A stretch of 60,130 nucleotides of DNA, filler included. It is 3 parts of 3 records of this genome, joined end to end, with 100 filler letters (N's around TTAATTAATTAA, not from the genome) between each part and the next. Parts side by side here need not be neighbours in the genome. Positions count along the whole stretch, not along the records: positions 31,122 to 46,171 come from SRR31156797_3296; 2 more parts are not named here. One strand, given 5' to 3'. Made by a program: the position numbers and the translations under genes. Below are positions 28,957 through 46,271 of the stretch, piece by piece (within the stretch, counting starts at the first letter, position 1; every line of letters starts with the position of its first letter). The notes below the pieces were generated by a model. That model was not told where the DNA came from. It saw only the letters and a program-made list of their open reading frames with translations, and ran no database searches.

Positions 28957-29283
28957 TGTTAGTGGGGGGATGGGATAAAGGTTATTTCGAAAAGCGGGAG
29001 CAGCTGTTTTTGGGAAAGTGGACCCTCTTGAGTACAAGATATTATGAGAGTAATAGAATCCATACCTTTGTAAAAGGCACTCTGTTTATGGCAGTAGCTT
29101 TTCTTTTTGTTGCCGAGGGTAAAATAAATGCTTCGAGTCAGGTGGTTTATCATTGAGGGAAGAGGTGGCATCTCTTCACATTTTCTGTGAGTGTGATATT
29201 CTGTACTGTAAAGGCTGATGTTAATGTAGACGTCATGGGGCGCTATTCTTTTGGGAGGCAGAAGAGGAGGTCTTATAATCAGA

Positions 29284-29643
29284 ATGGTTCAATCGCATCT
29301 TAGGAAAAAATCAAGACGCAAAGCGTACCGTTTTTTGGGAGACAATTTACCTGTTCAGTATAAAACAAGCTTTGAAGATGGCACAGCTATTTTGCAGGAC
29401 ATCTCAACCTCTGGTTGCGCCCTCTCATCTGTAACCGTACCGGTTGTCTTGCGAGAAAAAGTTTTGATAGCAATTGTTCTTCCGGGTGAAAAGGAAAAGA
29501 TTGAGGCGAAAGGAATTGTCAGCCGCTCTGAAATCGATAATTTTGCACTATCTTTTACATTGATAGAACCAGTAACGGTCAAACTGATCCAGGCTTTCTT
29601 TTTTCAGGCTCTCAGAAAGAAAATCAATAAAGAGCGCACTTAA
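29284..29643 (+). CDS. Stand-alone PilZ domain protein
   Basis: RxxxR (RKAYR) and DxSxxG (DISTSG) c-di-GMP motifs. Confidence 0.85.
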   Translation: MVQSHLRKKSRRKAYRFLGDNLPVQYKTSFEDGTAILQDISTSGCALSSVTVPVVLREKVLIAIVLPGEKEKIEAKGIVSRSEIDNFALSFTLIEPVTVKLIQAFFFQALRKKINKERT

Positions 29644-29675
29644 CTCGCGGGTAATAGAAGGTCAGTAGGAAGAGG

Positions 29676-30881
29676 ATGGAACAATATATTGCAAGGCAGC
29701 CGATTTTTAATCTGCATAAAAAGGTGTATGCCTACGAGTTGCTGTACCGTGGAGCCAAGCATTATTCACTTGATAAGGTGAGTGGTAATCGAGCAACAAC
29801 CAGCCTGCTTTCCAGCACGTTCCTTACCCGGGATATAAAGGATATCTCTAGTTTTAAACCATGTTTCATTAATTTTACACAAGACCTGCTAGAAAAGAGG
29901 CTTCCTGAATCTTTTTCCAAAGAAAGCCTTGTAGTAGAAATTCTTGAAGACGTGAAACCGACCCCAAAAGTAGTGCAGGCCTGTCAACAGTTGCACGACA
30001 AAGGTTATACTCTTGCCTTGGATGATTTTTTATATGAGAGGAAATTTATACCGCTGCTCAAACTTGCAGATATCGTAAAAATAGATTTCAGACGCACGCC
30101 TTATAAAACGATATTGCGAACCTTGGATATACTTGCCAGGTACAAAGTAAAACTTCTTGCAGAAAAAGTTGAAACTTTAGAGGAATTTGAGACAGCTGCC
30201 AAACTTGGATTTGTATATTACCAGGGCTATTTTTTTTCCAAGCCTGAACAGGTAAAAATTCAGGAACTTACCACTACCCAGGTTACCCATCTTCGGTTGC
30301 TGGCAGAAGTAACCAAAAAAAGTACGACCATTGAAAGTCTGCACAAGATAATTGCAAACGATATATCTGTGAGCTATAAGCTGTTGCGCTTTTTAAATTC
30401 TTCCTATTTTTACCGGTTGCAGGAAATCAAGTCAGTGAAGCAGGCAATCGCTTTTCTCGGAACAAGAGAATTACGCCAATTTGTGATGCTGGTGATCATA
30501 TCAGACATGACAACCAACAAACCGGGAGAGTTAATACGGCTTGGCCTTGTACGCGCAAAATTTTGTGAATTATTGGGAGAAAGCAGTGACCAGAGCATTG
30601 ATTCTTCCGAATTGTTTGTAGTCGGATTATTTTCCCTGCTGGACGCAATGTTGGATGCACCAATGACAGAAATTATGGGAAAGTTGCCGGTGAGTAGCGG
30701 GATAAAAGAAACACTTCTTGCCAGTACCGGACCATATTGTATTTATTTGGAACTCGTCAAAAGTTATGAGAAAAATAATGCGGCCCTTTTTATTCCCCTG
30801 TTTGAAAGACTGGAGCTTGGTCCAGAGAAGGTGAATGCGTGTTATTTAACGGCAATAAAATATGCCAACGGGTTACTGTGA
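29676..30881 (+). CDS. EAL + HDOD domain protein (YuxH/PdeH-like)
   Basis: YIARQPI, YELLYR, VVEILE, LALDDF, LLAEKVET, QGYFFSKP, then HDOD (SYKLLRFLNS, VGLFSLLDA). Confidence 0.92.
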   Translation: MEQYIARQPIFNLHKKVYAYELLYRGAKHYSLDKVSGNRATTSLLSSTFLTRDIKDISSFKPCFINFTQDLLEKRLPESFSKESLVVEILEDVKPTPKVVQACQQLHDKGYTLALDDFLYERKFIPLLKLADIVKIDFRRTPYKTILRTLDILARYKVKLLAEKVETLEEFETAAKLGFVYYQGYFFSKPEQVKIQELTTTQVTHLRLLAEVTKKSTTIESLHKIIANDISVSYKLLRFLNSSYFYRLQEIKSVKQAIAFLGTRELRQFVMLVIISDMTTNKPGELIRLGLVRAKFCELLGESSDQSIDSSELFVVGLFSLLDAMLDAPMTEIMGKLPVSSGIKETLLASTGPYCIYLELVKSYEKNNAALFIPLFERLELGPEKVNACYLTAIKYANGLL

Positions 30882-30964: not shown

Positions 30965-30975
30965 GTTGAACCCAT

Positions 30976-31021
30976 GCCGGAGTGGTGAAACTGGTAGACG
31001 CACTGGACTCAAAATCCAGCG
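30976..31021 (+). tRNA. tRNA-Leu(CAA), 5' half only, cut by the gap
   Basis: GCCGGAGTGGTGAAACTGGTAGACGCA (acceptor and D arms), anticodon arm CTGGA-CTCAAAA-TCCAG. Confidence 0.93.
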
Positions 31022-31121
31022 NNNNNNNNNNNNNNNNNNNNNNNNNNNNNNNNNNNNNNNNNNNNTTAATTAATTAANNNNNNNNNNNNNNNNNNNNNNN
31101 NNNNNNNNNNNNNNNNNNNNN
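31022..31121. other. Artificial contig spacer
   Basis: N run containing TTAATTAATTAA (stops in all six frames) at 31066-31077. Confidence 0.98.
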
Positions 31122-33296
31122 AATATGAGTCACGAAATTCGTACGCCTATGAACAGCATCATTGGGTTCGGGCATTTGATGCAAAGTGCCGATCTCGACC
31201 CTGCACATCGTGAATACTTAAATAAGATGATGTCCTCGGCTGATTCTCTGTTGTCGATCATCGGTGATATCCTTGATTTTTCGAAGATTGAAGCAGGTAA
31301 ATTCGTATTGGAGGATGTTGAATTCCAACTGGACCATGTGCTGGAAAAAATTTGCAATATGGTTGCGGTCAAGGCGGAGTCCAAAGGGGTTGATTTTGTT
31401 CTTTCTGTTGATCCTGAAGTCCCTTTATATATGCGTGGAGACCCGTTACGTCTTGAGCAGGTGCTGACCAATCTTGTAAACAATGCGGTTAAGTTCACGG
31501 AGATGGGGGAAGTTAACCTGGTTGTCTCCTGTGAGGATAATTGCGCCGGCGAAGCATCAATAAAATTTATTGTCCGGGATAGTGGCATTGGTTTGAGTAA
31601 TGAGGAAATAACCATGCTTTTCAATTCCTTCACTCAGGCTGATGCTTCCACCACCCGAAAGTATGGTGGCACCGGGCTGGGGCTGGCTATTGCCCGCTCC
31701 CTTGTGGAATTAATGGGCGGTAACGTTAATGTTGAGAGTCAGCCCGGAGTGGGGAGTTCTTTTTATTTTACCGTGCAACTGACTGCTATGGATAAAGGCA
31801 GCATAATGTCTTTGCCTGCAGGGAAAGAGGGCTTGAAAGTTCTTGTGGTTGAGAGCAATAGACTGGCCCGTGAATTTATCCGCTCCGCATTGGAAAAATC
31901 CGGTTTTATGGTTGCGGTAGACAGTTCAGCTTCCGGTGCACTTGAAAGGCTTGAAGCACATGCGGATATGGATGATTTCGGTTTGATTCTTGTGTCCGGT
32001 AAATTGCAGGATATGCATGTGTTTAAGGTTGTTGAACGGATCAGGACTCTCTCCGCGCTGGAGCATGTGCCGATTGTTTTAATGGCCCCTGTGAACATTG
32101 ATGAATCTTTTCGCAAGGAAGCTGCTCTTATTGGTGTTGACGGGTTTGTTACCCGGCCGGTTTCTCGCATTTCATTGTATTCTGCATTGCAGGGTGAATT
32201 CAGTGAAGTTCAACAGGCGGTTCTTCCTGTTGCAGATTGGCAGGGTGCTGTTGAACTTGAATTGACTGGGCAGAAACCGAAAATTTTACTTGTGGAAGAT
32301 AATGAACTCAACCAGCAGGTTGCCCGGAGAATGTTGGAAGGCATGGGGCTTGAGGTTGATGTGGCCGATAATGGACGTAAGGCTTTGGAAGCCTTGGAGG
32401 CTGAGGCTTACAGTTTGGTCATTATGGATATTCAGATGCCGGAAATGGATGGGCTGACTGCGGCGAAGATTATCCGTTCCAACGAACGCTACAGCAACTT
32501 GCCTATTCTGGCTATGACAGCCCATGCCATGCCTGGTGACAGGGAGAAAAGTCTTGAGGCCGGTATGAATGAACATTTGACTAAGCCTATTGATCCGGAA
32601 GAATTAAGAAAAGCTTTGGGTAAATATCTGGACGCAGATGGTATAATCTATGTCCATGATTCCAACGATCTCTCAGCAATTGATGAAGATCTGCCGGACT
32701 TGCCCGGAATAGACTGTGCCAAGGGGCTGCGTAATATCGGGGGCAAGAAGGATAATTACCTGAAAGTATTACAAGGGTTCAAAGAACGATATGCAGATTT
32801 TCAAGATGAATTGAAAGAGGCTATAGCTGATTCAGAACCGGAACAGGCCTTGATAAAAATTCATTCTTTGAAAGGGGTTTCCGGAAATATCGGAGCTGTA
32901 AAACTTTATGAATTCTGTCGTATTCTGGAAGGAGATCTTCGCGAGGATGACCGTAAAGGATATGAAGATGATCTAGTGCTTTTTGTTTCTGAACTTGATC
33001 TGGTAATCAAGGGATTGCAGGGACTTAAAGTTGCCAGTGGTGATGGCTTCAGGGAATATGTGTACGATAAAGAAAAAAGTTTTAATCTTATTAATAAGCT
33101 GTATATAATGCTTGGCGAAGGTGATGCTGAGTGTGGCGATGTGCTTGACGAATTGCGAACCCATTTTAATCTGGAACGTTTTGAAGAACAACTTGCAGAG
33201 TTAACCCGCTATATTGAAAATTTTGATTTTGATGATGGACGTTCCCTGCTGGAACGAATTGCCGATAAACTGAATCTCACGCTGGATAAAGGGTAG
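31122..33296 (+). CDS. Hybrid sensor histidine kinase (HisKA-HATPase-pseudoREC-REC-HPt), 5'-truncated
   Basis: [33 protein letters not shown]. First REC degenerate, second [16 protein letters not shown], HPt [12 protein letters not shown]. Confidence 0.95.
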
Positions 33297-33301
33297 GAGT
33301 A

Positions 33302-34213
33302 ATGGAAGAGCGATCTAAAATTCTGATTGTCGATGATGAGCGGTTGAATCTTAATGTCCTTTCGGATCTGCTGCGACAGGATTATAAGGTTGTTCTGGCC
33401 AAAAACGGTAATCAGGCTCTTGACCGGATCAATTCTGATAATCCTCCGGATTTGGTACTTCTGGACGTGCTTATGCCGGAAATGGACGGGTATGAAGTTC
33501 TGCGCAAAATCAAATCTTTCGATAAAAGTAAGGATATCCCGGTAGTTTTTATCACCGCCCTTGATTCCGAGCATGATGAGGCCCGTGGTCTCGAAATGGG
33601 AGCTGTTGATTATATTCGCAAGCCTTTCCATCCTCCTATTGTCAAGGCAAGGGTCAAAAATCATCTGACTATTGCAAGGCAGCGCAAACTTCTGGAAGGA
33701 CTTGCCAATCTGGACGGGCTTACCGAAATGCCCAATCGTAGAAGTTTTGAGTTGGCTTTGGAAAGGGAGTGGCGCCGGTGCAGTCGTTCCGGGGATAAAA
33801 TGTCGCTGGCTATGCTCGATGTGGACTGTTTCAAGCAATATAACGACAACTACGGCCATACCGCTGGTGATGAGGTTCTGAAAAAGGTTGCTGATGTCCT
33901 GCAGGCCGAGGTCCAGCGGCCGGCTGATGTTGCCGCACGGTACGGAGGTGAAGAATTTGTTCTACTGCTGCCGGATACAGACTCCGATGGCGGCAGGTAT
34001 ATTGCTGAAAAGATCAGGGTCTTGATTTCTGAACTTGGTATCAAGCACGGTTTTTCTTCGGTAAGTAATGTGCTGACAGTAAGTCTTGGTGGAGTGACCG
34101 TGGTCCCGTCTACCTTTTCCAAAGTGAAGGATTTGACAGTTGGCGCGGATTCCATGCTCTACGAGGCCAAGCGCAGAGGAAGAAATATGGTCCTTTGGAC
34201 TGACCTGACCTGA
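33302..34213 (+). CDS. Response-regulator diguanylate cyclase (REC-GGDEF)
   Basis: ILIVDD, LVLLDVLMPEMDG, I-site RPAD, RYGGEEF. Confidence 0.95.
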   Translation: MEERSKILIVDDERLNLNVLSDLLRQDYKVVLAKNGNQALDRINSDNPPDLVLLDVLMPEMDGYEVLRKIKSFDKSKDIPVVFITALDSEHDEARGLEMGAVDYIRKPFHPPIVKARVKNHLTIARQRKLLEGLANLDGLTEMPNRRSFELALEREWRRCSRSGDKMSLAMLDVDCFKQYNDNYGHTAGDEVLKKVADVLQAEVQRPADVAARYGGEEFVLLLPDTDSDGGRYIAEKIRVLISELGIKHGFSSVSNVLTVSLGGVTVVPSTFSKVKDLTVGADSMLYEAKRRGRNMVLWTDLT

Positions 34214-34215
34214 TT

Positions 34216-36891
34216 TTATTCTCCTTCAGGAAACCAGATCTCGTATGAGGTTCCTTCTCCCGGAGTGCTCTGGCATTCAATAGTTCCTTTTAATGCTCTG
34301 GTCACAAGGTTGTATACCAGATGCATGCCCAGTCCTGTGTTCCCTGAACTTCTGGCCGTGGTGTAAAACGGTTCAAACACCTTCAGTATCTGCTCCGTCC
34401 CCATACCTATACCGTTGTCGGAAAAGATCAATTTGACTCCTTTGCCGCTACGCTGGGCAGTAATGGATATTTTGCCTTTATCCATATCCGGGAAAGCATG
34501 GGTCAGTGAGTTGGTCACAATATTGGTTATGACCTGCATTAAAGAGCCCGGCGAAATATTGATTTCCATTCCCTTGGGGCAATCTACAGTAAGTTCGTGT
34601 TTGTACCCCTTGAATTTAGGTTTCAATGATAGCAGTATCCCTTGAATGTATTCGTTCAGGTTAACCTGTCTGACATCGTCTGAGGCCTGATCCACTGCTA
34701 GTTGTTTGAAGTTGCTGATCAGTGTTGCAGAGCGTTCAAGATTTTTCATTATGTTGTTGAGGGCTTCGCTGCCTGTTTTCAGGAATTTTTCAAGGTCCGA
34801 TTTTTTCATCGTGCCGTCTTCAAAGCTGTGCTGTAGGGTTTCAGTCAATTCTTTAATAAAAGAAGCACTGGTCACGCTGATACCCAGCGGAGTGTTGATT
34901 TCGTGGGCTACCCCGGCAACAAGCTCCCCGAGGGATGCCATTTTTTCCGTTTCCACCAGCTTGTCCTGTGTCTGGCGCAGTTCATCCATGGATTTTAGCA
35001 GGGCGGAGTTGGCGTTTTCCAGTTCCGTGGTACGCATGGTAACCCTTTCCACCAGCTCCTTGTTTAAGGATTTCATTTCCTGTTCAACTTCTTTGATGCG
35101 GGAGATGTCTGTGGAAATGGTCAGGATAGCAGGGGTGTTGTTCTCAGCTGAAATATAGGGGACCCGTGTTGTTTCAATCCAGTGGGTGGTCCGGTTTTCA
35201 TCCCGGTAGCTTTCTTCAGTGAGCAGTTTTTCATTTCTTTCAATGACCATGCGGTCATCTTCAAGAATGCGGGTTACTTCCACCGGGTCTTTGATTATTT
35301 CAGGCAGGAATTTTCCGGTGATATCCTCAGTGGTAATCCCCATTTTCTCCGCTTTGATGCTGTTGACCAGCAGGAATTTACCTTCAAGGTCGTTGGCGAA
35401 AATGTCTTGTGGCAGCAAGTTGATAATCTGGCGCAGTCTTGCTTCACTCTCCTGCGCTTTCTGGGTTGCTTTCTTGCTTTCAGTGACATCAAGACCCTGT
35501 AAGAGGATGAAATCTGCATCTTCCTTGGCTCCCATCCGTACCGGAGAAAATGTCCAGATAAAATATTTTTCATCTCCTTCGGCTGGGCAAATGGGTAATT
35601 CTAGGACAGGAGTGAAATCTCCTTTCATGGCTTGTTGTAGTGCCATGTCTATCGTTTCATGATAGTTGTCCGGGAAAAAATTATTCAGTGTTTTGCTTAA
35701 AACCAGCTTGTCATCAAGGCCGATAAGTTTTGCAGCTGCCGGATTCATGTCAAGGATGACTCCGGTTGTGTCGCAGTTGATGATAGGTGCCTTTGCTGAT
35801 GAGAATAGCTTGGAAATATAGGCGCTATTTTCATCCAGTTTTGCAACCATGTTTTCCAGCATTAATCCCAGTTGGTTGAATTCCCTCACCCGGCCGGGGA
35901 TGAAATTTGTTTCCCCTTCTCCTGCTGCTACGCTCTGGGCATAGTCGGTCAGCATTTTCAGGGCTTTCAGGATTCTTTTCTGCAATCCCCAGGCTGTAAA
36001 AATGGCCAAAAGGGCTGCCAGTGAAAGCAGAATGCCCAGATTCTGCATGTAATTTTTTTTTAGGGATTGGAAGGCAGGGTTTTTCCTTACAAAACTGAAC
36101 AACAACGGGCTGTCAGCCTGGTGCGGGAGCAACTGGATGGTGGAGTATATCTGTTCTTCGTCGATTTTGAATTCCCCAGGTTTAATGCCAAGGGTCCAGT
36201 CGATGAGTTTTTTCATCTCCGTTTTGGATGGATTGGATGTGCTTATGATCAACCTGTTCCTGCTGACAAGGGCTGCATTGATTGCTGTGGACACTTTTTT
36301 CAGCCGATCGATGAAAGATACGTTGGAATTCAGGTCTATTCCGCCATAAAGAATGCCGGCAACTTCCCCTGTATGTTCGTTGAAGACCGGGACAGCACAG
36401 ACCAGCATCGTCCTGATATTGTTCAATGATCTGAATGAAAGATAACCCCACGCTGGAGAAGTGGTCATTGTGTTTTTGAATTTATTGCGCAGTTGTACGA
36501 TGGGCAGCTCAATGACTCCGGCCTCAACCCAGTTCCGCCCTTCCCGGTAAATGGTCAGGACATCCAGAAGATATCCTTGGCGGGAGTTCATGAATTCGTA
36601 CAATTTCTGGTCAAGGGATTCACTATCCCCGGAAATGATTGCACCCCGGAAACTTGCATCAAGGGTCATTTCAATGAGGTCATCTTTGATGTCTTCAAGA
36701 GTGTTGTTCAGAGATAGGGCAACAATGCTCTCGGTTTTTTCAATATCAATGGCGATTTCGTTTTCAAGGGTGGTCTTGGACAAGTAGAAAGACCATGAAA
36801 ATATGAATATTCCCATGACAACCACCAGCGCCAGCATCGGGGTCAGCAGTTGTATTGTCAGTCCGAGGGCCTTCCTTGAAAAAAGCTTCAT
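34216..36891 (-). CDS. Sensor histidine kinase with LuxQ-type periplasmic domain, HAMP-like linker, two PAS domains and NtrB-like kinase core
   Basis: Two TM helices flank a segment (RTMLVCAVPVFNEHTGEVAG..DLNSNVSFIDRLKK) resembling the Vibrio LuxQ periplasmic domain as recalled. EKMASLGELVAGVAHEINTPLG H-box, no receiver domain. Confidence 0.85.
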   Translation of the reverse strand: MKLFSRKALGLTIQLLTPMLALVVVMGIFIFSWSFYLSKTTLENEIAIDIEKTESIVALSLNNTLEDIKDDLIEMTLDASFRGAIISGDSESLDQKLYEFMNSRQGYLLDVLTIYREGRNWVEAGVIELPIVQLRNKFKNTMTTSPAWGYLSFRSLNNIRTMLVCAVPVFNEHTGEVAGILYGGIDLNSNVSFIDRLKKVSTAINAALVSRNRLIISTSNPSKTEMKKLIDWTLGIKPGEFKIDEEQIYSTIQLLPHQADSPLLFSFVRKNPAFQSLKKNYMQNLGILLSLAALLAIFTAWGLQKRILKALKMLTDYAQSVAAGEGETNFIPGRVREFNQLGLMLENMVAKLDENSAYISKLFSSAKAPIINCDTTGVILDMNPAAAKLIGLDDKLVLSKTLNNFFPDNYHETIDMALQQAMKGDFTPVLELPICPAEGDEKYFIWTFSPVRMGAKEDADFILLQGLDVTESKKATQKAQESEARLRQIINLLPQDIFANDLEGKFLLVNSIKAEKMGITTEDITGKFLPEIIKDPVEVTRILEDDRMVIERNEKLLTEESYRDENRTTHWIETTRVPYISAENNTPAILTISTDISRIKEVEQEMKSLNKELVERVTMRTTELENANSALLKSMDELRQTQDKLVETEKMASLGELVAGVAHEINTPLGISVTSASFIKELTETLQHSFEDGTMKKSDLEKFLKTGSEALNNIMKNLERSATLISNFKQLAVDQASDDVRQVNLNEYIQGILLSLKPKFKGYKHELTVDCPKGMEINISPGSLMQVITNIVTNSLTHAFPDMDKGKISITAQRSGKGVKLIFSDNGIGMGTEQILKVFEPFYTTARSSGNTGLGMHLVYNLVTRALKGTIECQSTPGEGTSYEIWFPEGE

Positions 36892-36903
36892 GAATGAATC
36901 CTT

Positions 36904-38004
36904 TTAGTTTCCGGAGTATCGGAAGCTCTCCTGTTGCAGTTCTTGCAGACGTTTCGCACTTATACCTTTTTCCAATATTTCAAACCTACCGGAAAATACA
37001 AGGGGGATTTGTGAATTTTTTTTAAGCAGATCAAGAATTACGGCATCGGCCATAGCAACTCCATTATCGTCATTAATACGCATTACCGTGACATCCAGTT
37101 CTCCTTTTTTAATGGCTTTTATTTCCGGTGTACCTCCACCCCAGCCGTTGACCATGATTCGGTCGAGCATGTTTTTTTCCTGCAATCCTTCTACAGCCCC
37201 GAGGGCTATGTCTGTGGAACAGGCATAAATAAATTTAACATCCGGGTGTTGTTCGGTAATCTTTGTGGCTGCCAGACGAGCTTTGCCTTTATTGATTCCG
37301 GTGCGGAAAATTGTTGCCAGTTTGAGAGCGGTTTGGCTGTCCATATACGAAATGAAAGTATTTCCCCTTTCTTCATTCAAATAACCGGGCTCCGGCAGAA
37401 GAATGGCATATTTGCCGCGTCCGCCAGTTTTGCGGGCGAAATATTCTGCAAGTATTTTTGTGCCCTGCGCATGGTCGAATCCTACGTACATGAAGGGCTG
37501 TTTTCCTTCCCATACCTTTAGCGGGGTGGTTATGTTCTGGAGTATTATTTTGGGTTTTCCGGTAATGAGGATAGGTTCAATCATCCTTTGGTGCCGCAAA
37601 GCATCAAGGGTGAAAAAAAGGTAGTCCGGCTCGGTTTCCAAAGCTTTATGAAAGGCGGCAGTCTGCTTGCCCAGTGTGTCTGAAGAATTGATGAAAAATT
37701 TTAGAATACGGGGGCTGGCACCGTATTGTTTCATCCTGTTTTCAAAGGATTCGCAGCTTCTTCGCCAGTAGTCCGAGACCTGTCCGCCTGGATATACAAT
37801 GGCTATTTTAGGGCTTAATTGTTTACTTAGCTGCTTAACGTCATTTCTTTTTACGAGTTTATAGAAATTATCTTCCAGAATTTTTTCGTTGGGATGAAGT
37901 TTTATGTATTGATCAAGAGTATAGTATTTCCCGGCCTTGGCAGGGATAGTGGGAAGCAGAATTGAAAAGAAAGCTATGACGGTCAGAAATTGTCTGAGAT
38001 TCAT
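36904..38004 (-). CDS. luxP: Autoinducer-2-binding periplasmic protein LuxP
   Basis: VYPGGQVSDYW, FTLD, ILQNITTP, QPFMYVGFDH, RGNTF, FIYACSTDIALGA, NGWGGG, DVTVMRINDD match Vibrio LuxP motifs. Signal peptide. Start at MNLRQ (GGAG upstream); 38016 is an alternative. Confidence 0.92.
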   Translation of the reverse strand: MNLRQFLTVIAFFSILLPTIPAKAGKYYTLDQYIKLHPNEKILEDNFYKLVKRNDVKQLSKQLSPKIAIVYPGGQVSDYWRRSCESFENRMKQYGASPRILKFFINSSDTLGKQTAAFHKALETEPDYLFFTLDALRHQRMIEPILITGKPKIILQNITTPLKVWEGKQPFMYVGFDHAQGTKILAEYFARKTGGRGKYAILLPEPGYLNEERGNTFISYMDSQTALKLATIFRTGINKGKARLAATKITEQHPDVKFIYACSTDIALGAVEGLQEKNMLDRIMVNGWGGGTPEIKAIKKGELDVTVMRINDDNGVAMADAVILDLLKKNSQIPLVFSGRFEILEKGISAKRLQELQQESFRYSGN

Positions 38005-38005
38005 T

Positions 38006-38050
38006 ACTGTCTCCATATTTCAATGTTTACACGAGAAATATGGAGACAGT
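38006..38050 (-). promoter_or_regulatory. Perfect 16-bp inverted repeat covering the luxP Shine-Dalgarno
   Basis: ACTGTCTCCATATTTC (38006-38021) / GAAATATGGAGACAGT (38035-38050), 13-nt loop. Confidence 0.7.
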
Positions 38051-41203: not shown

Positions 41204-41224
41204 TGTGATCTAAATTGTTTTTGT

Positions 41225-41267
41225 CAGCCGCACGGCCCCATCGGGCAGTGCGGCTGTTTTCTTTTTT
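41225..41267 (+). terminator. Rho-independent terminator
   Basis: CAGCCGCAC / GTGCGGCTG stem with inner GCCC/GGGC, followed by T-rich tract. Confidence 0.75.
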
Positions 41268-41331
41268 GGCTTTTTTCTATGGCGGGAGTTGTGTTATCGT
41301 TGATACGGAACATCTTCTTGGGAGGTATTGC

Positions 41332-41751
41332 ATGATAGATGAAGAATATGAAACCGGTTTTATGGTCGTCAGTTGTTCCGGCGGATCTGGTTCAGGTCAG
41401 GCTGCCAACAGTCTGGCGGTGGAGTTAAACAGGAGTGGTTTTGCAAAGATGGTCTGCCTTGCTGGGATCGGCGCCGGACTTGATGAGTGCGTAGAAGAAG
41501 CAGGTAAGGTGAGGGATCTCATTGTTATTGACGGTTGTGAAAAGGGCTGTTCCCAGATCATGTTGAGAAAAATGGGCATTGAACCTGTGCATACCTTTTG
41601 CTTGACCAAGATGGGAGTGGAATGTCCAGTTAATGAAGTTAATCCTGCCATGTTGGAAGAGTTGCGCAAGAAGATAAAATTATTGTTTGGGCAGCAACGG
41701 GCAGATTCAAAGTATGCAGTGTGCGGGTGCGATACCTGTGTCAGGGAATAA
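41332..41751 (+). CDS. Putative zinc-binding protein (DGC motif family)
   Basis: SCSGGS, MVCLAGIG, VIDGCEKGC, C-terminal CGCDTC. GGAGG RBS. Confidence 0.82.
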   Translation: MIDEEYETGFMVVSCSGGSGSGQAANSLAVELNRSGFAKMVCLAGIGAGLDECVEEAGKVRDLIVIDGCEKGCSQIMLRKMGIEPVHTFCLTKMGVECPVNEVNPAMLEELRKKIKLLFGQQRADSKYAVCGCDTCVRE

Positions 41752-41852
41752 AAGTATGACTTTACAAAATAATAATAGATCAAAACTAGCGATGTGATAG
41801 TTGTGAGGTTAGGCTTAACCTTTTTTTTTGATATAGCAGGAATCGGGAAGTT

Positions 41853-43091
41853 GTGAGTAGAGTTCTTATATTGGAGCCAAGTAAGGCTACGGCTAAGTTT
41901 ATTCGGGCTACTCTCTTGAAGGCGGGATTTGAGTGTGACATTGCCTATTCTTTTGATAGTGCGCAGAAATTGATTGCCGTAAATGAATATTTTGTCGGGC
42001 TGAGCAGCATGCTGCTTGATGATGCCGAGTACAGTATGGGTATAGATCTGTTGCTTGAGAACAGGATTCCTGCCATTGCAGTCACTGCATCTTTGGATGA
42101 GCAGGCTCTGAGTACTTTGGCGAAAAAGAGTATTGTGGATTACGTACTCAAGAAGTCTGATCAGGCGGAGTATATTGCCCGTATCGTCAACCGGGTTTAC
42201 AATAATCAGGGGATCAAGGTTCTGGTGGTTGATGATTCCACTTCTGTGCGGGACTGGATTGCCCGAATTCTTAAACGGCAGGGCCTGACTGTATTGCAGG
42301 CTGAAAACGGGGCTACTGCAAGCAAGGTCTTTTATAAAAATAGTGATATCAAGCTGATTCTGACCGACTATAATATGCCGGAGATGGATGGGCTTGAACT
42401 TACCGCGCACCTGCGTTCCATCCGTTCTATGGATGAACTGAGTATTATTGTTCTTTCTTCAGATACAAAATCCCGTACAGCACCGCTCTTCCTCAAGCAG
42501 GGGGCTAATGATTTTATTCAGAAGACCGCTTCTGTTGAAGAGATTCTCTGCCGTGTAAACTCCAACCTTGAATTTCTCGAGTTAATTCAAGCTTCCCGCG
42601 ATCGTGCTAACAAAGATTTTCTTACCGGACTGTGGAACAGGAGATACTTTTTTGAGCATGGCACTCCCCTTTACGAGCAATCAATTGTCGGAGGGAGTGA
42701 GCTTTGTGTGGTCATGCTTGATATCGACCATTTTAAAATGGTTAATGACACATACGGGCATGATGCCGGGGATGAAGTCTTAAAGGCGTTTTCCGCATTG
42801 TTGGCGGAATATGTAGGTGATGCCGGACTGGTTTCAAGGTTTGGTGGAGAAGAATTTACGGTTCTTCTTGATGAAATTCAGGCAGATGAACTTTCTGATT
42901 TTCTTGAAGATTTTAGGGAACAGGTTGAGCGTTTTTCTGTGGACTTCAAGGGGCAGGTGATAAAACTTACTGTCTCTATCGGGGCCACGGTAAATATGGA
43001 TGAATCCCTTACTGCAATGTTAAGCCGTGCTGATGACAAGCTTTATGAGGCCAAAAGAACAGGAAGGAATAAAGTCCTTTGTGATTGGTAA
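41853..43091 (+). CDS. pseudoREC-REC-GGDEF diguanylate cyclase
   Basis: Second REC VLVVDDS..LILTDYNMPEMDG, DFLTGLWNRR, DIDHFK, RFGGEEF. Confidence 0.93.
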   Translation: MSRVLILEPSKATAKFIRATLLKAGFECDIAYSFDSAQKLIAVNEYFVGLSSMLLDDAEYSMGIDLLLENRIPAIAVTASLDEQALSTLAKKSIVDYVLKKSDQAEYIARIVNRVYNNQGIKVLVVDDSTSVRDWIARILKRQGLTVLQAENGATASKVFYKNSDIKLILTDYNMPEMDGLELTAHLRSIRSMDELSIIVLSSDTKSRTAPLFLKQGANDFIQKTASVEEILCRVNSNLEFLELIQASRDRANKDFLTGLWNRRYFFEHGTPLYEQSIVGGSELCVVMLDIDHFKMVNDTYGHDAGDEVLKAFSALLAEYVGDAGLVSRFGGEEFTVLLDEIQADELSDFLEDFREQVERFSVDFKGQVIKLTVSIGATVNMDESLTAMLSRADDKLYEAKRTGRNKVLCDW

Positions 43092-46171: not shown

Positions 46172-46271
46172 NNNNNNNNNNNNNNNNNNNNNNNNNNNNN
46201 NNNNNNNNNNNNNNNTTAATTAATTAANNNNNNNNNNNNNNNNNNNNNNNNNNNNNNNNNNNNNNNNNNNN
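46172..46271. other. Artificial contig spacer
   Basis: N run containing TTAATTAATTAA at 46216-46227, same design as the first spacer. Confidence 0.98.

Follow-up and report, generated by a model that had tools for sequence, protein, structure and literature searches.

We analysed a 60,130-nucleotide window composed of three contigs joined end to end by linkers of the form N44-TTAATTAATTAA-N44 (31022..31121 and 46172..46271), whose middle contig (31122..46171, 15,050 bp) encodes a homolog of the Vibrio autoinducer-2 (AI-2) binding protein LuxP and, immediately downstream, a LuxQ-like sensor histidine kinase. From end to end the middle contig matches the chromosome of a Maridesulfovibrio metagenome-assembled genome (G001, locus L002) with 86% DNA identity, and the host of the luxPQ contig is a Maridesulfovibrio. 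It is the only piece collinear with the nearest Maridesulfovibrio genome, the left piece giving short matches of 64–83% and the right piece none; the G+C content of the third piece is 35–40%, compared with 41–50% for the luxPQ contig, and the three pieces may derive from different sources. The luxPQ locus comprises the following features:

36904..38016, minus strand: luxP-like gene, encoding a type-I periplasmic binding protein (370 aa when translated from the first ATG) with full-length LuxP homology.
36892..36903, minus strand: spacer of 12 nt separating the luxP stop from the kinase ATG, reading AAGGATTCATTC and holding AAGGA, a ribosome-binding site.
34216..36891, minus strand: LuxQ-like sensor histidine kinase of 891 aa, with a first transmembrane segment (TM1), periplasmic domain, second transmembrane segment (TM2), two PAS domains, a dimerization and histidine phosphotransfer (DHp) domain and a catalytic ATPase (CA) domain, and no receiver.
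36046..36780, minus strand: periplasmic LuxQ-type double-PAS (dCache-like) domain of the kinase, residues 38–282, from Pfam, an AlphaFold2 model and Foldseek.
35467..35814, minus strand: PAS1, residues ~360–475 (Pfam PAS_4 at 363–473), the last part homologous to Vibrio LuxQ.
35074..35454, minus strand: PAS2, residues ~480–606 (TIGR00229 at 480–605), with which the lineage-typical transmitter cassette begins.
34219..34974, minus strand: DHp and catalytic ATPase core, residues 640–891 (HisKA, HATPase_c), with the H-box HEINTPLG.

The pair thus lies where the initial annotation had placed it, a luxP-like reading frame followed after 12 nt by a kinase gene, with 38004 as the end coordinate given there. 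That position is an internal ATG which, on reading the sequence, has GGAG 6 nt upstream and yields a protein of 366 aa; because GGAG precedes it, this codon is the more probable luxP start. A Sec signal peptide, also read from the sequence, ends at about AKA–G (residue 27/28). Since the 12-nt spacer carries the AAGGA ribosome-binding site, luxP and the kinase gene are probably carried on one transcript.

Homology of the binding protein to LuxP is extensive. Searching the PDB with phmmer returned the V. harveyi LuxP structures 1zhh, 4yp9, 1jx6 and 2hj9 (E 9e-84, 285 bits, residues 31–370), with designed or ribose-type binding proteins following at no better than E 2e-11; the window protein is ~42% identical to V. 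harveyi LuxP (144/340 aligned positions, counted by hand on the phmmer alignment). We take the AI-2 pocket of V. harveyi LuxP to comprise Q77, S79, W82, N159, R215, T266, D267, W289 and R310. Counted along the same alignment, with V. harveyi numbering equal to the chain index plus 21, all nine positions are identical in the window protein (Q79, S81, W84, N161, R217, T268, D269, W292 and R313), and the six motifs quoted in the initial annotation as carriers of the borate–AI-2 ligands are all present. The available text of a review has R215 and R310 binding S-THMF-borate (PMC3794749), and the remaining seven are given as pocket residues in the accessible part of a docking paper (PMC9920117).

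Conservation of this pocket extends well beyond the host genus. A LuxP scan of 185,579 species genomes yielded 183 confirmed relatives, and the figures on loci given here refer to the best 80, a set biased towards the LuxPs most similar to the query. All nine pocket positions are kept in 72 of these 80 homologs, the other eight showing one change each (Q to E, S to T or D to S), conservative in every case, and 44 columns are invariant over 72 sequences. A system in which LuxP binds another ligand, such as a different borated diol, a furanone or a sugar, and serves as a nutrient or environment sensor would accord with the ribose-binding-protein fold (Peripla_BP_4 is the sole Pfam match) and with a family that is only ~40–48% identical across phyla. 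We nevertheless regard it as quite improbable given the identity of all nine AI-2-contacting positions with V. harveyi LuxP, the invariant columns and the binding of AI-2 by three of three randomly chosen non-model LuxP homologs (Proteobacteria, Deferribacterota), as stated in the available portion of a 2025 survey (PMC12268683).

The gene pairing is equally recurrent. In 71 of the 80 loci a large co-directional open reading frame (ORF) begins only a few bases from the luxP stop; six of the nine exceptions run into a contig end (L019, L023, L026, L030, L070, L072) and three have flanking sequence with no such ORF (L055, L068, L080). Profiles iterated from window seeds detect LuxQ-periplasm in all 71 adjacent proteins, and Pfam detects it in each of 20 representatives, with 19 over the gathering score and one, L060, at 24.1 bits. 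The initial annotation had allowed for an ordinary sugar-binding protein of an ABC transporter, and one might likewise imagine such a protein, for transport or chemotaxis, lying by chance beside an unrelated kinase. To this we give almost no credence: the NCBIfam matches that could suggest it (allose 37 bits, ribose 36 bits) fall far short of the 335 and 337 bits set as cut-offs, the domain scan of the neighbours found no ABC-transporter permease or ATPase gene adjoining luxP on the contig, and the pairing with LuxQ-periplasm recurs in those 71 of 80 loci across several phyla. A chance neighbourhood is effectively refuted by this conserved pairing.

The sensor half of the kinase is of the LuxQ type by both sequence profile and fold. 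Hydrophobic segments at residues ~8–38 and 282–304 bracket a region in which Pfam LuxQ-periplasm scores 63.2 bits over residues 38–231 (gathering score 25.7). An AlphaFold2 model of residues 1–300, built on a 72-row alignment, reached a mean pLDDT of 80.9, and its six best Foldseek matches in the PDB are all LuxQ periplasmic domains (3C38, 3C30, 2HJE, 1ZHH_B and 2HJ9_C/D; E 1.8e-11 to 3.3e-9, TM-score by target 0.75–0.79), with generic dCache domains next at 0.55 or below; sequence identity to the solved LuxQ domains is ~17% (Foldseek). The transmitter half retains intact boxes: H663 within HEINTPLG, which contains H-E-x-x-T, followed by N790, G1 at 825, F839 and G2 at 850. The H-E-x-x-T motif is a mark of bifunctional kinase/phosphatases. 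The best named NCBIfam matches of the core are AtoS (144 bits), PnpS (134) and ZraS (100), all far under their cut-offs, and ZraS is matched in the PDB at E 4e-21. Pfam gives no Response_reg match on the kinase, and the protein ends at its CA domain. The architecture proposed in the initial annotation, a LuxQ-like periplasmic domain retrievable by HMM search, two PAS domains and an orthodox NtrB-like core with no receiver, is therefore upheld.

The two halves differ in origin, and the boundary between them can be located. The NCBIfam model LuxQ_Vibrio (NF041947) aligns with residues 15–481 over its positions 8–460, at 204 bits, well short of the equivalog cut-off of 1200. Only one close paralog of the kinase core occurs in the closest complete genome (46% identical, 254 bits), a 773-aa sCache_2–PAS–PAS–kinase, the 33 other matches reaching 34% at most; when the full kinase was compared with this paralog by BLASTP, only residues 461–889 aligned (37% identity over 431 residues, E 1e-91). 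Because the LuxQ_Vibrio model covers residues 15–481 and the homology to the sCache_2 paralog covers 461–889, the kinase reads as a chimera in which a LuxQ sensor–TM–PAS1 unit is joined at residues ~460–480 to a PAS–DHp–CA cassette of the lineage, and the domain shuffling suspected in the initial annotation is now mapped to a junction. Such a junction represents a natural swap of sensor and transmitter and could guide receptor engineering.

We consider it likely that the two genes form a two-protein periplasmic sensor for borated AI-2 (S-THMF-borate), joining a Vibrio-type input to a lineage-specific, receiver-less transmitter. Secreted LuxP would bind S-THMF-borate and rest on the membrane kinase at its LuxQ-type periplasmic domain, and, as happens in Vibrio, ligand-induced closure of LuxP would alter the LuxQ dimer. 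The signal would then travel through TM2 to the LuxQ-type PAS1, on to the second PAS and into the orthodox, bifunctional (kinase/phosphatase) HisKA core, which would act directly on a separate response regulator encoded elsewhere, with no LuxU-type relay. The organism's closest relatives presumably produce AI-2 themselves. The evidence for contact between LuxP and LuxQ is their conserved gene adjacency, which suggests that the two proteins meet; the sign of the response, the regulator and its regulon are likewise putative.

Several points weigh against this interpretation. AI-2 binding by this particular LuxP is a prediction from sequence. The LuxQ periplasmic domain is only 15–20% identical to those outside the genus, and the LuxP–LuxQ interface is therefore unreadable from sequence; co-folding of LuxP (28–370) with the periplasmic domain (38–282), with purpose-built 72-row alignments and no controls, gave ipSAE values of 0.23 and 0.28 (mark 0.32), figures that speak neither for binding nor against it. 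The luxPQ contig carries no co-directional response-regulator gene, NtrC-type genes included; among the 34 receiver-less relatives, 23 likewise lack any ORF with a receiver within 3 kb. As to the signal, the window organism's own luxS is presumed from its closest genomes, and luxS was found in only 6 of the 12 LuxP-carrying Desulfovibrionaceae genomes examined. Because half of these genomes have luxS, 'talk and listen' and 'listen only' both occur among LuxP carriers, and the nearest relatives of the window organism are of the first kind.

The source of the signal deserves separate consideration. The initial annotation had pointed to the lack of luxS, luxU and luxO and left a choice between quorum sensing and eavesdropping. 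The domain scan indeed found none of the three on the luxPQ contig (31122..46171 only); as evidence, however, a luxS-free piece is uninformative because it is one 15-kb contig, and luxS (PF02664) is present in 5/5 of the closest Maridesulfovibrio genomes with this luxPQ, at 178–194 bits, which argues against pure eavesdropping. Among 151 Desulfovibrionaceae genomes sampled, eight carry LuxP (E 1e-40 or better), three carry luxS and two carry both; luxS thus occurs in 2/8 LuxP carriers versus 1/143 of the others (Fisher p 0.007, relatedness ignored). A host that makes no AI-2 of its own and uses LuxPQ to detect that of neighbours (e.g. Vibrio or Arcobacter in marine sediment) would explain the luxS-free contig and the six of eight LuxP carriers with no luxS match in this sample, and it has precedent in the LuxP homologs of luxS-less Oceanospirillales and deltaproteobacteria described in the available text of a 2008 survey (PMC2561040). 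We think this unlikely here, since all five closest genomes, whose LuxPs are 60–87% identical and whose synteny is the same, encode luxS, a gene rare in the family (3/151) and enriched among LuxP carriers. Given luxS in all five and the uninformative absence from the contig, a self-produced signal appears at least as likely as eavesdropping.

The genes surrounding luxPQ form a conserved block in 6/6 Maridesulfovibrio loci, consisting of HlyD, ComFB, REC-GGDEF, a DGC-domain protein, an ArsP permease, queF, a queuosine-precursor transporter, luxP and luxQ. Next to the kinase gene, the contig carries the following two signalling genes:

33302..34213, plus strand: convergent PleD-like REC-GGDEF gene, with GGEEF at 215 and an RxxD I-site at 206, its stop 2 nt from the kinase stop.
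31125..33296: hybrid kinase ORF, its N-terminus cut by the contig start so that it opens exactly at the H-box.

Orthologs of the hybrid kinase in relatives are ~1450 aa long and have an Hpt domain. Both genes adjoin luxPQ in 4/6 Maridesulfovibrio loci; in the other two genomes an ortholog of the convergent REC-GGDEF (80–81%) lies ~1 Mb and ~20 kb from luxPQ, and because its position is not conserved in this way the REC-GGDEF gene is regarded as a separate module. The adjacency, in the window and in those four loci, together with the intact GGEEF and I-site and the direct fusion of the same sensor to GGDEF-EAL in 19/71 relatives, could suggest that the LuxQ-like kinase controls cyclic di-GMP (c-di-GMP) by phosphorylating the PleD-like protein. 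This output seems doubtful: the gene is convergent and not co-transcribed with the kinase, it lies 5 nt after a 1450-aa hybrid kinase whose Hpt domain makes that protein the obvious phosphodonor, and its orthologs in two genomes lie apart from luxPQ. Three distant receiver-less relatives (L008, L035, L046) have a stand-alone receiver gene directly downstream. The sCache_2 paralog in the nearest genome is also an orphan, with no regulator gene beside it; it lies between protease genes and adjoins a 1511-aa RTX-repeat protein (L175:7145-9466, G001). The two kinases may converge on one shared regulator.

Other features of the window were recorded alongside. The stops of the convergent REC-GGDEF and kinase genes (34213..34216) have no terminator-like hairpin between them, and the 3' ends of the two transcripts must overlap. 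Genes related to c-di-GMP are abundant in the window (29251..30881, 33302..34213, 41215..43091), the first contig contributing PilZ and EAL-HDOD and the luxPQ contig a pair of REC-GGDEF genes plus the DGC-domain protein. Scanning the luxPQ contig against Rfam gave no match, nor is there a preQ1 riboswitch ahead of the upstream queuosine-precursor transporter gene, and simple promoter and terminator scans gave counts not above those in shuffled sequence. The first contig stops within a tRNA-like sequence (30975..31021), where ARAGORN makes no call.

The census of LuxP loci places the window system in a large family visible from sequence; it is no one-off. Relatives within Maridesulfovibrio are 55–87% identical in LuxP, and those at 41–51% come from Desulfobacteraceae, Desulfocapsa, Arcobacteraceae, Roseibium/Labrenzia, Terasakiella, Oceanospirillaceae and others. 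The 71 luxP-adjacent LuxQ-periplasm proteins fall into the following output types, the classes from profiles agreeing with the Pfam classes for all 20 proteins checked:

34/71: receiver-less kinase.
19/71: GGDEF/EAL proteins.
14/71: hybrid kinase.
2/71: PP2C (SpoIIE) phosphatase.
1/71: HAMP-MCP chemoreceptor.
1/71: PAS domains only (L077).

Receiver-less kinases thus account for nearly half of these proteins, and the wiring in the window is not unusual within the family, a point on which the initial annotation overstated the case. A second scan, seeded with an Oceanimonas LuxP and considered for the best 80 of 174 confirmed relatives, brought in the Vibrionaceae, whose loci encode hybrid kinases with a receiver in 4/4 cases (848–877 aa).

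An unrooted LuxP tree of 124 rows (IQ-TREE, LG+G4, SH-aLRT support only; 36 of 79 second-scan rows dropped as duplicates of the first scan) put the window protein in a clade of seven Maridesulfovibrio rows with 100% support, all with receiver-less kinases. This clade is sister (99) to a Desulfovibrio sp. with a GGDEF-EAL partner and lies near Arcobacteraceae (87). Clades mostly track taxonomy, Vibrionaceae forming one clade of four rows, and the well-supported branches need at least 8, 7 and 5 label changes for receiver-less kinases, hybrid kinases and GGDEF/EAL proteins, respectively. Across the Maridesulfovibrio loci L001–L005 and L010, identity to the window is 55–87% for LuxP, 71–91% for LuxQ and 62–97% for the flanking genes, so that LuxP is more divergent within the genus than LuxQ and almost all flanking genes.

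Tentatively, LuxP and the LuxQ periplasmic domain might be viewed as a portable cassette for sensing borated AI-2, plugged into lineage-specific transmitters, from kinases and c-di-GMP enzymes to a chemoreceptor and PP2C phosphatases, in at least four phyla and including, in luxS-positive Maridesulfovibrio, a complete, self-contained circuit that bypasses LuxU and LuxO; the phyla would be Thermodesulfobacteriota, Campylobacterota, Pseudomonadota and Moduliflexota, in marine members. Were this so, cytoplasmic PAS input would be combined with AI-2, and Vibrio LuxPQ would be only one branch of the family.

Several loci depart from the common arrangement. In three Oceanisphaera species (L092:2915-3853, L093:2811-3749, L099:2878-3816) the gene after luxP encodes exactly 312 aa, comprising a transmembrane segment, LuxQ-periplasm and a second transmembrane segment, with no cytoplasmic output domain, no continuation in other frames and no Ns; short forms of this kind, of 307–636 aa, occur in thirteen Aeromonadaceae rows, and these proteins could represent output-less LuxQ or gene decay. 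Orphan LuxPs with ample flanking sequence and no LuxQ-periplasm gene directly downstream were seen at L055, L068, L080, L105 and L149 (Psychromonadaceae, Motilimonas, Curvivirga). Two Roseibium loci (L059:4983-7772, L069:4988-7768) encode a second protein of ~927 aa with a LuxQ-periplasm-like N-terminus upstream of luxP while keeping the downstream GGDEF-EAL partner, and a single LuxP may work with both receptors there.

The debate over whether AI-2 truly signals between species has turned largely on the rarity of its receptors. Here, an intact-pocket LuxP occurs in a sulfate reducer whose closest relatives carry luxS, and across marine bacteria this sensor pair feeds five or more kinds of output, which gives concrete, testable AI-2 circuits in anaerobes of sediment sulfur cycling and biocorrosion, a field in which, according to the available text of Scarascia et al. 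2016, quorum quenching was proposed from BLAST matches alone (PMC5187520). That same text lists BLAST homologs of LuxS, LuxP, LuxQ and LuxO in D. hydrothermalis and proposes knock-outs, and the available part of a preprint on cold seeps connects luxS, luxP and luxQ in metagenome-assembled genomes of Desulfobacterota (10.1101/2024.11.15.623595). The expectation in the initial annotation that luxP-like genes might already be annotated in marine Desulfovibrio is borne out by LuxP annotation in related genomes and by the accessible portions of the 2008 and 2016 reports (PMC2561040, PMC5187520); the gain here is accordingly incremental, the evidence consisting of sequence and models. Our literature search, which left most subscription journals outside its reach, found no paper characterising a non-Vibrio LuxPQ pathway, in line with the initial annotation, or the output diversity of LuxP-adjacent LuxQ-periplasm proteins. 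Within the portions available, a Cache paper counts 112 kinases and one c-di-GMP enzyme among 115 LuxQ-periplasm proteins (PMC4822843), a 2020 paper describes LuxP as present only in Vibrio (PMC7584622), and the 2025 survey lists 267 LuxP proteins in RefSeq, mainly marine, treating LuxP as a transport protein with LuxQ unmentioned (PMC12268683).

In the text available, Rezzonico and Duffy (2008) described LuxP homologs that Oceanospirillales and Desulfuromonas encode beside PAS-domain regulators, and a further one that stands as an orphan in 'D. desulfuricans' G20 (Dde_3311, Oleidesulfovibrio alaskensis) (PMC2561040). Those cases resemble the present one in that a non-Vibrio LuxP, ~36–41% identical to V. 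harveyi LuxP, shares an operon with a PAS-containing signalling protein; they differ in that, in the accessible text of that paper, which predates the Maridesulfovibrio genomes, the LuxQ-type periplasmic domain of the partners went unrecognised and the cases were treated as marginal (PMC2561040). TorT–TorS, XylFII–LytS and HptA–HptS likewise have a transporter-less periplasmic binding protein beside a kinase as co-sensor, although their binding-protein families, ligands and sensor-domain folds are different (PMC8050422). The dCache_1 (CahR-type) AI-2 receptors PctA, TlpQ and KinD similarly connect AI-2 input to chemoreceptor (MCP), GGDEF/EAL, kinase and PP2C outputs, whereas, in the available description, they bind unborated AI-2 directly in the Cache pocket with no binding protein (PMC7584622).

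The closest counterpart is LuxP–LuxQ of Vibrio harveyi/campbellii and V. cholerae (1JX6, 1ZHH, 2HJ9, 2HJE, 3C38), which shares with the window system the same nine pocket positions, the double-PAS LuxQ fold, the order luxP then luxQ with a short gap, and homology through TM2 and the first cytoplasmic PAS. It differs in its transmitter: the window kinase has a second PAS and a DHp/CA core nearest to AtoS, PnpS and ZraS, not LuxQ, and because it is without a receiver no LuxU/LuxO-type relay is needed. The Maridesulfovibrio pair is a genuine, probably AI-2-sensing variant of the Vibrio system.

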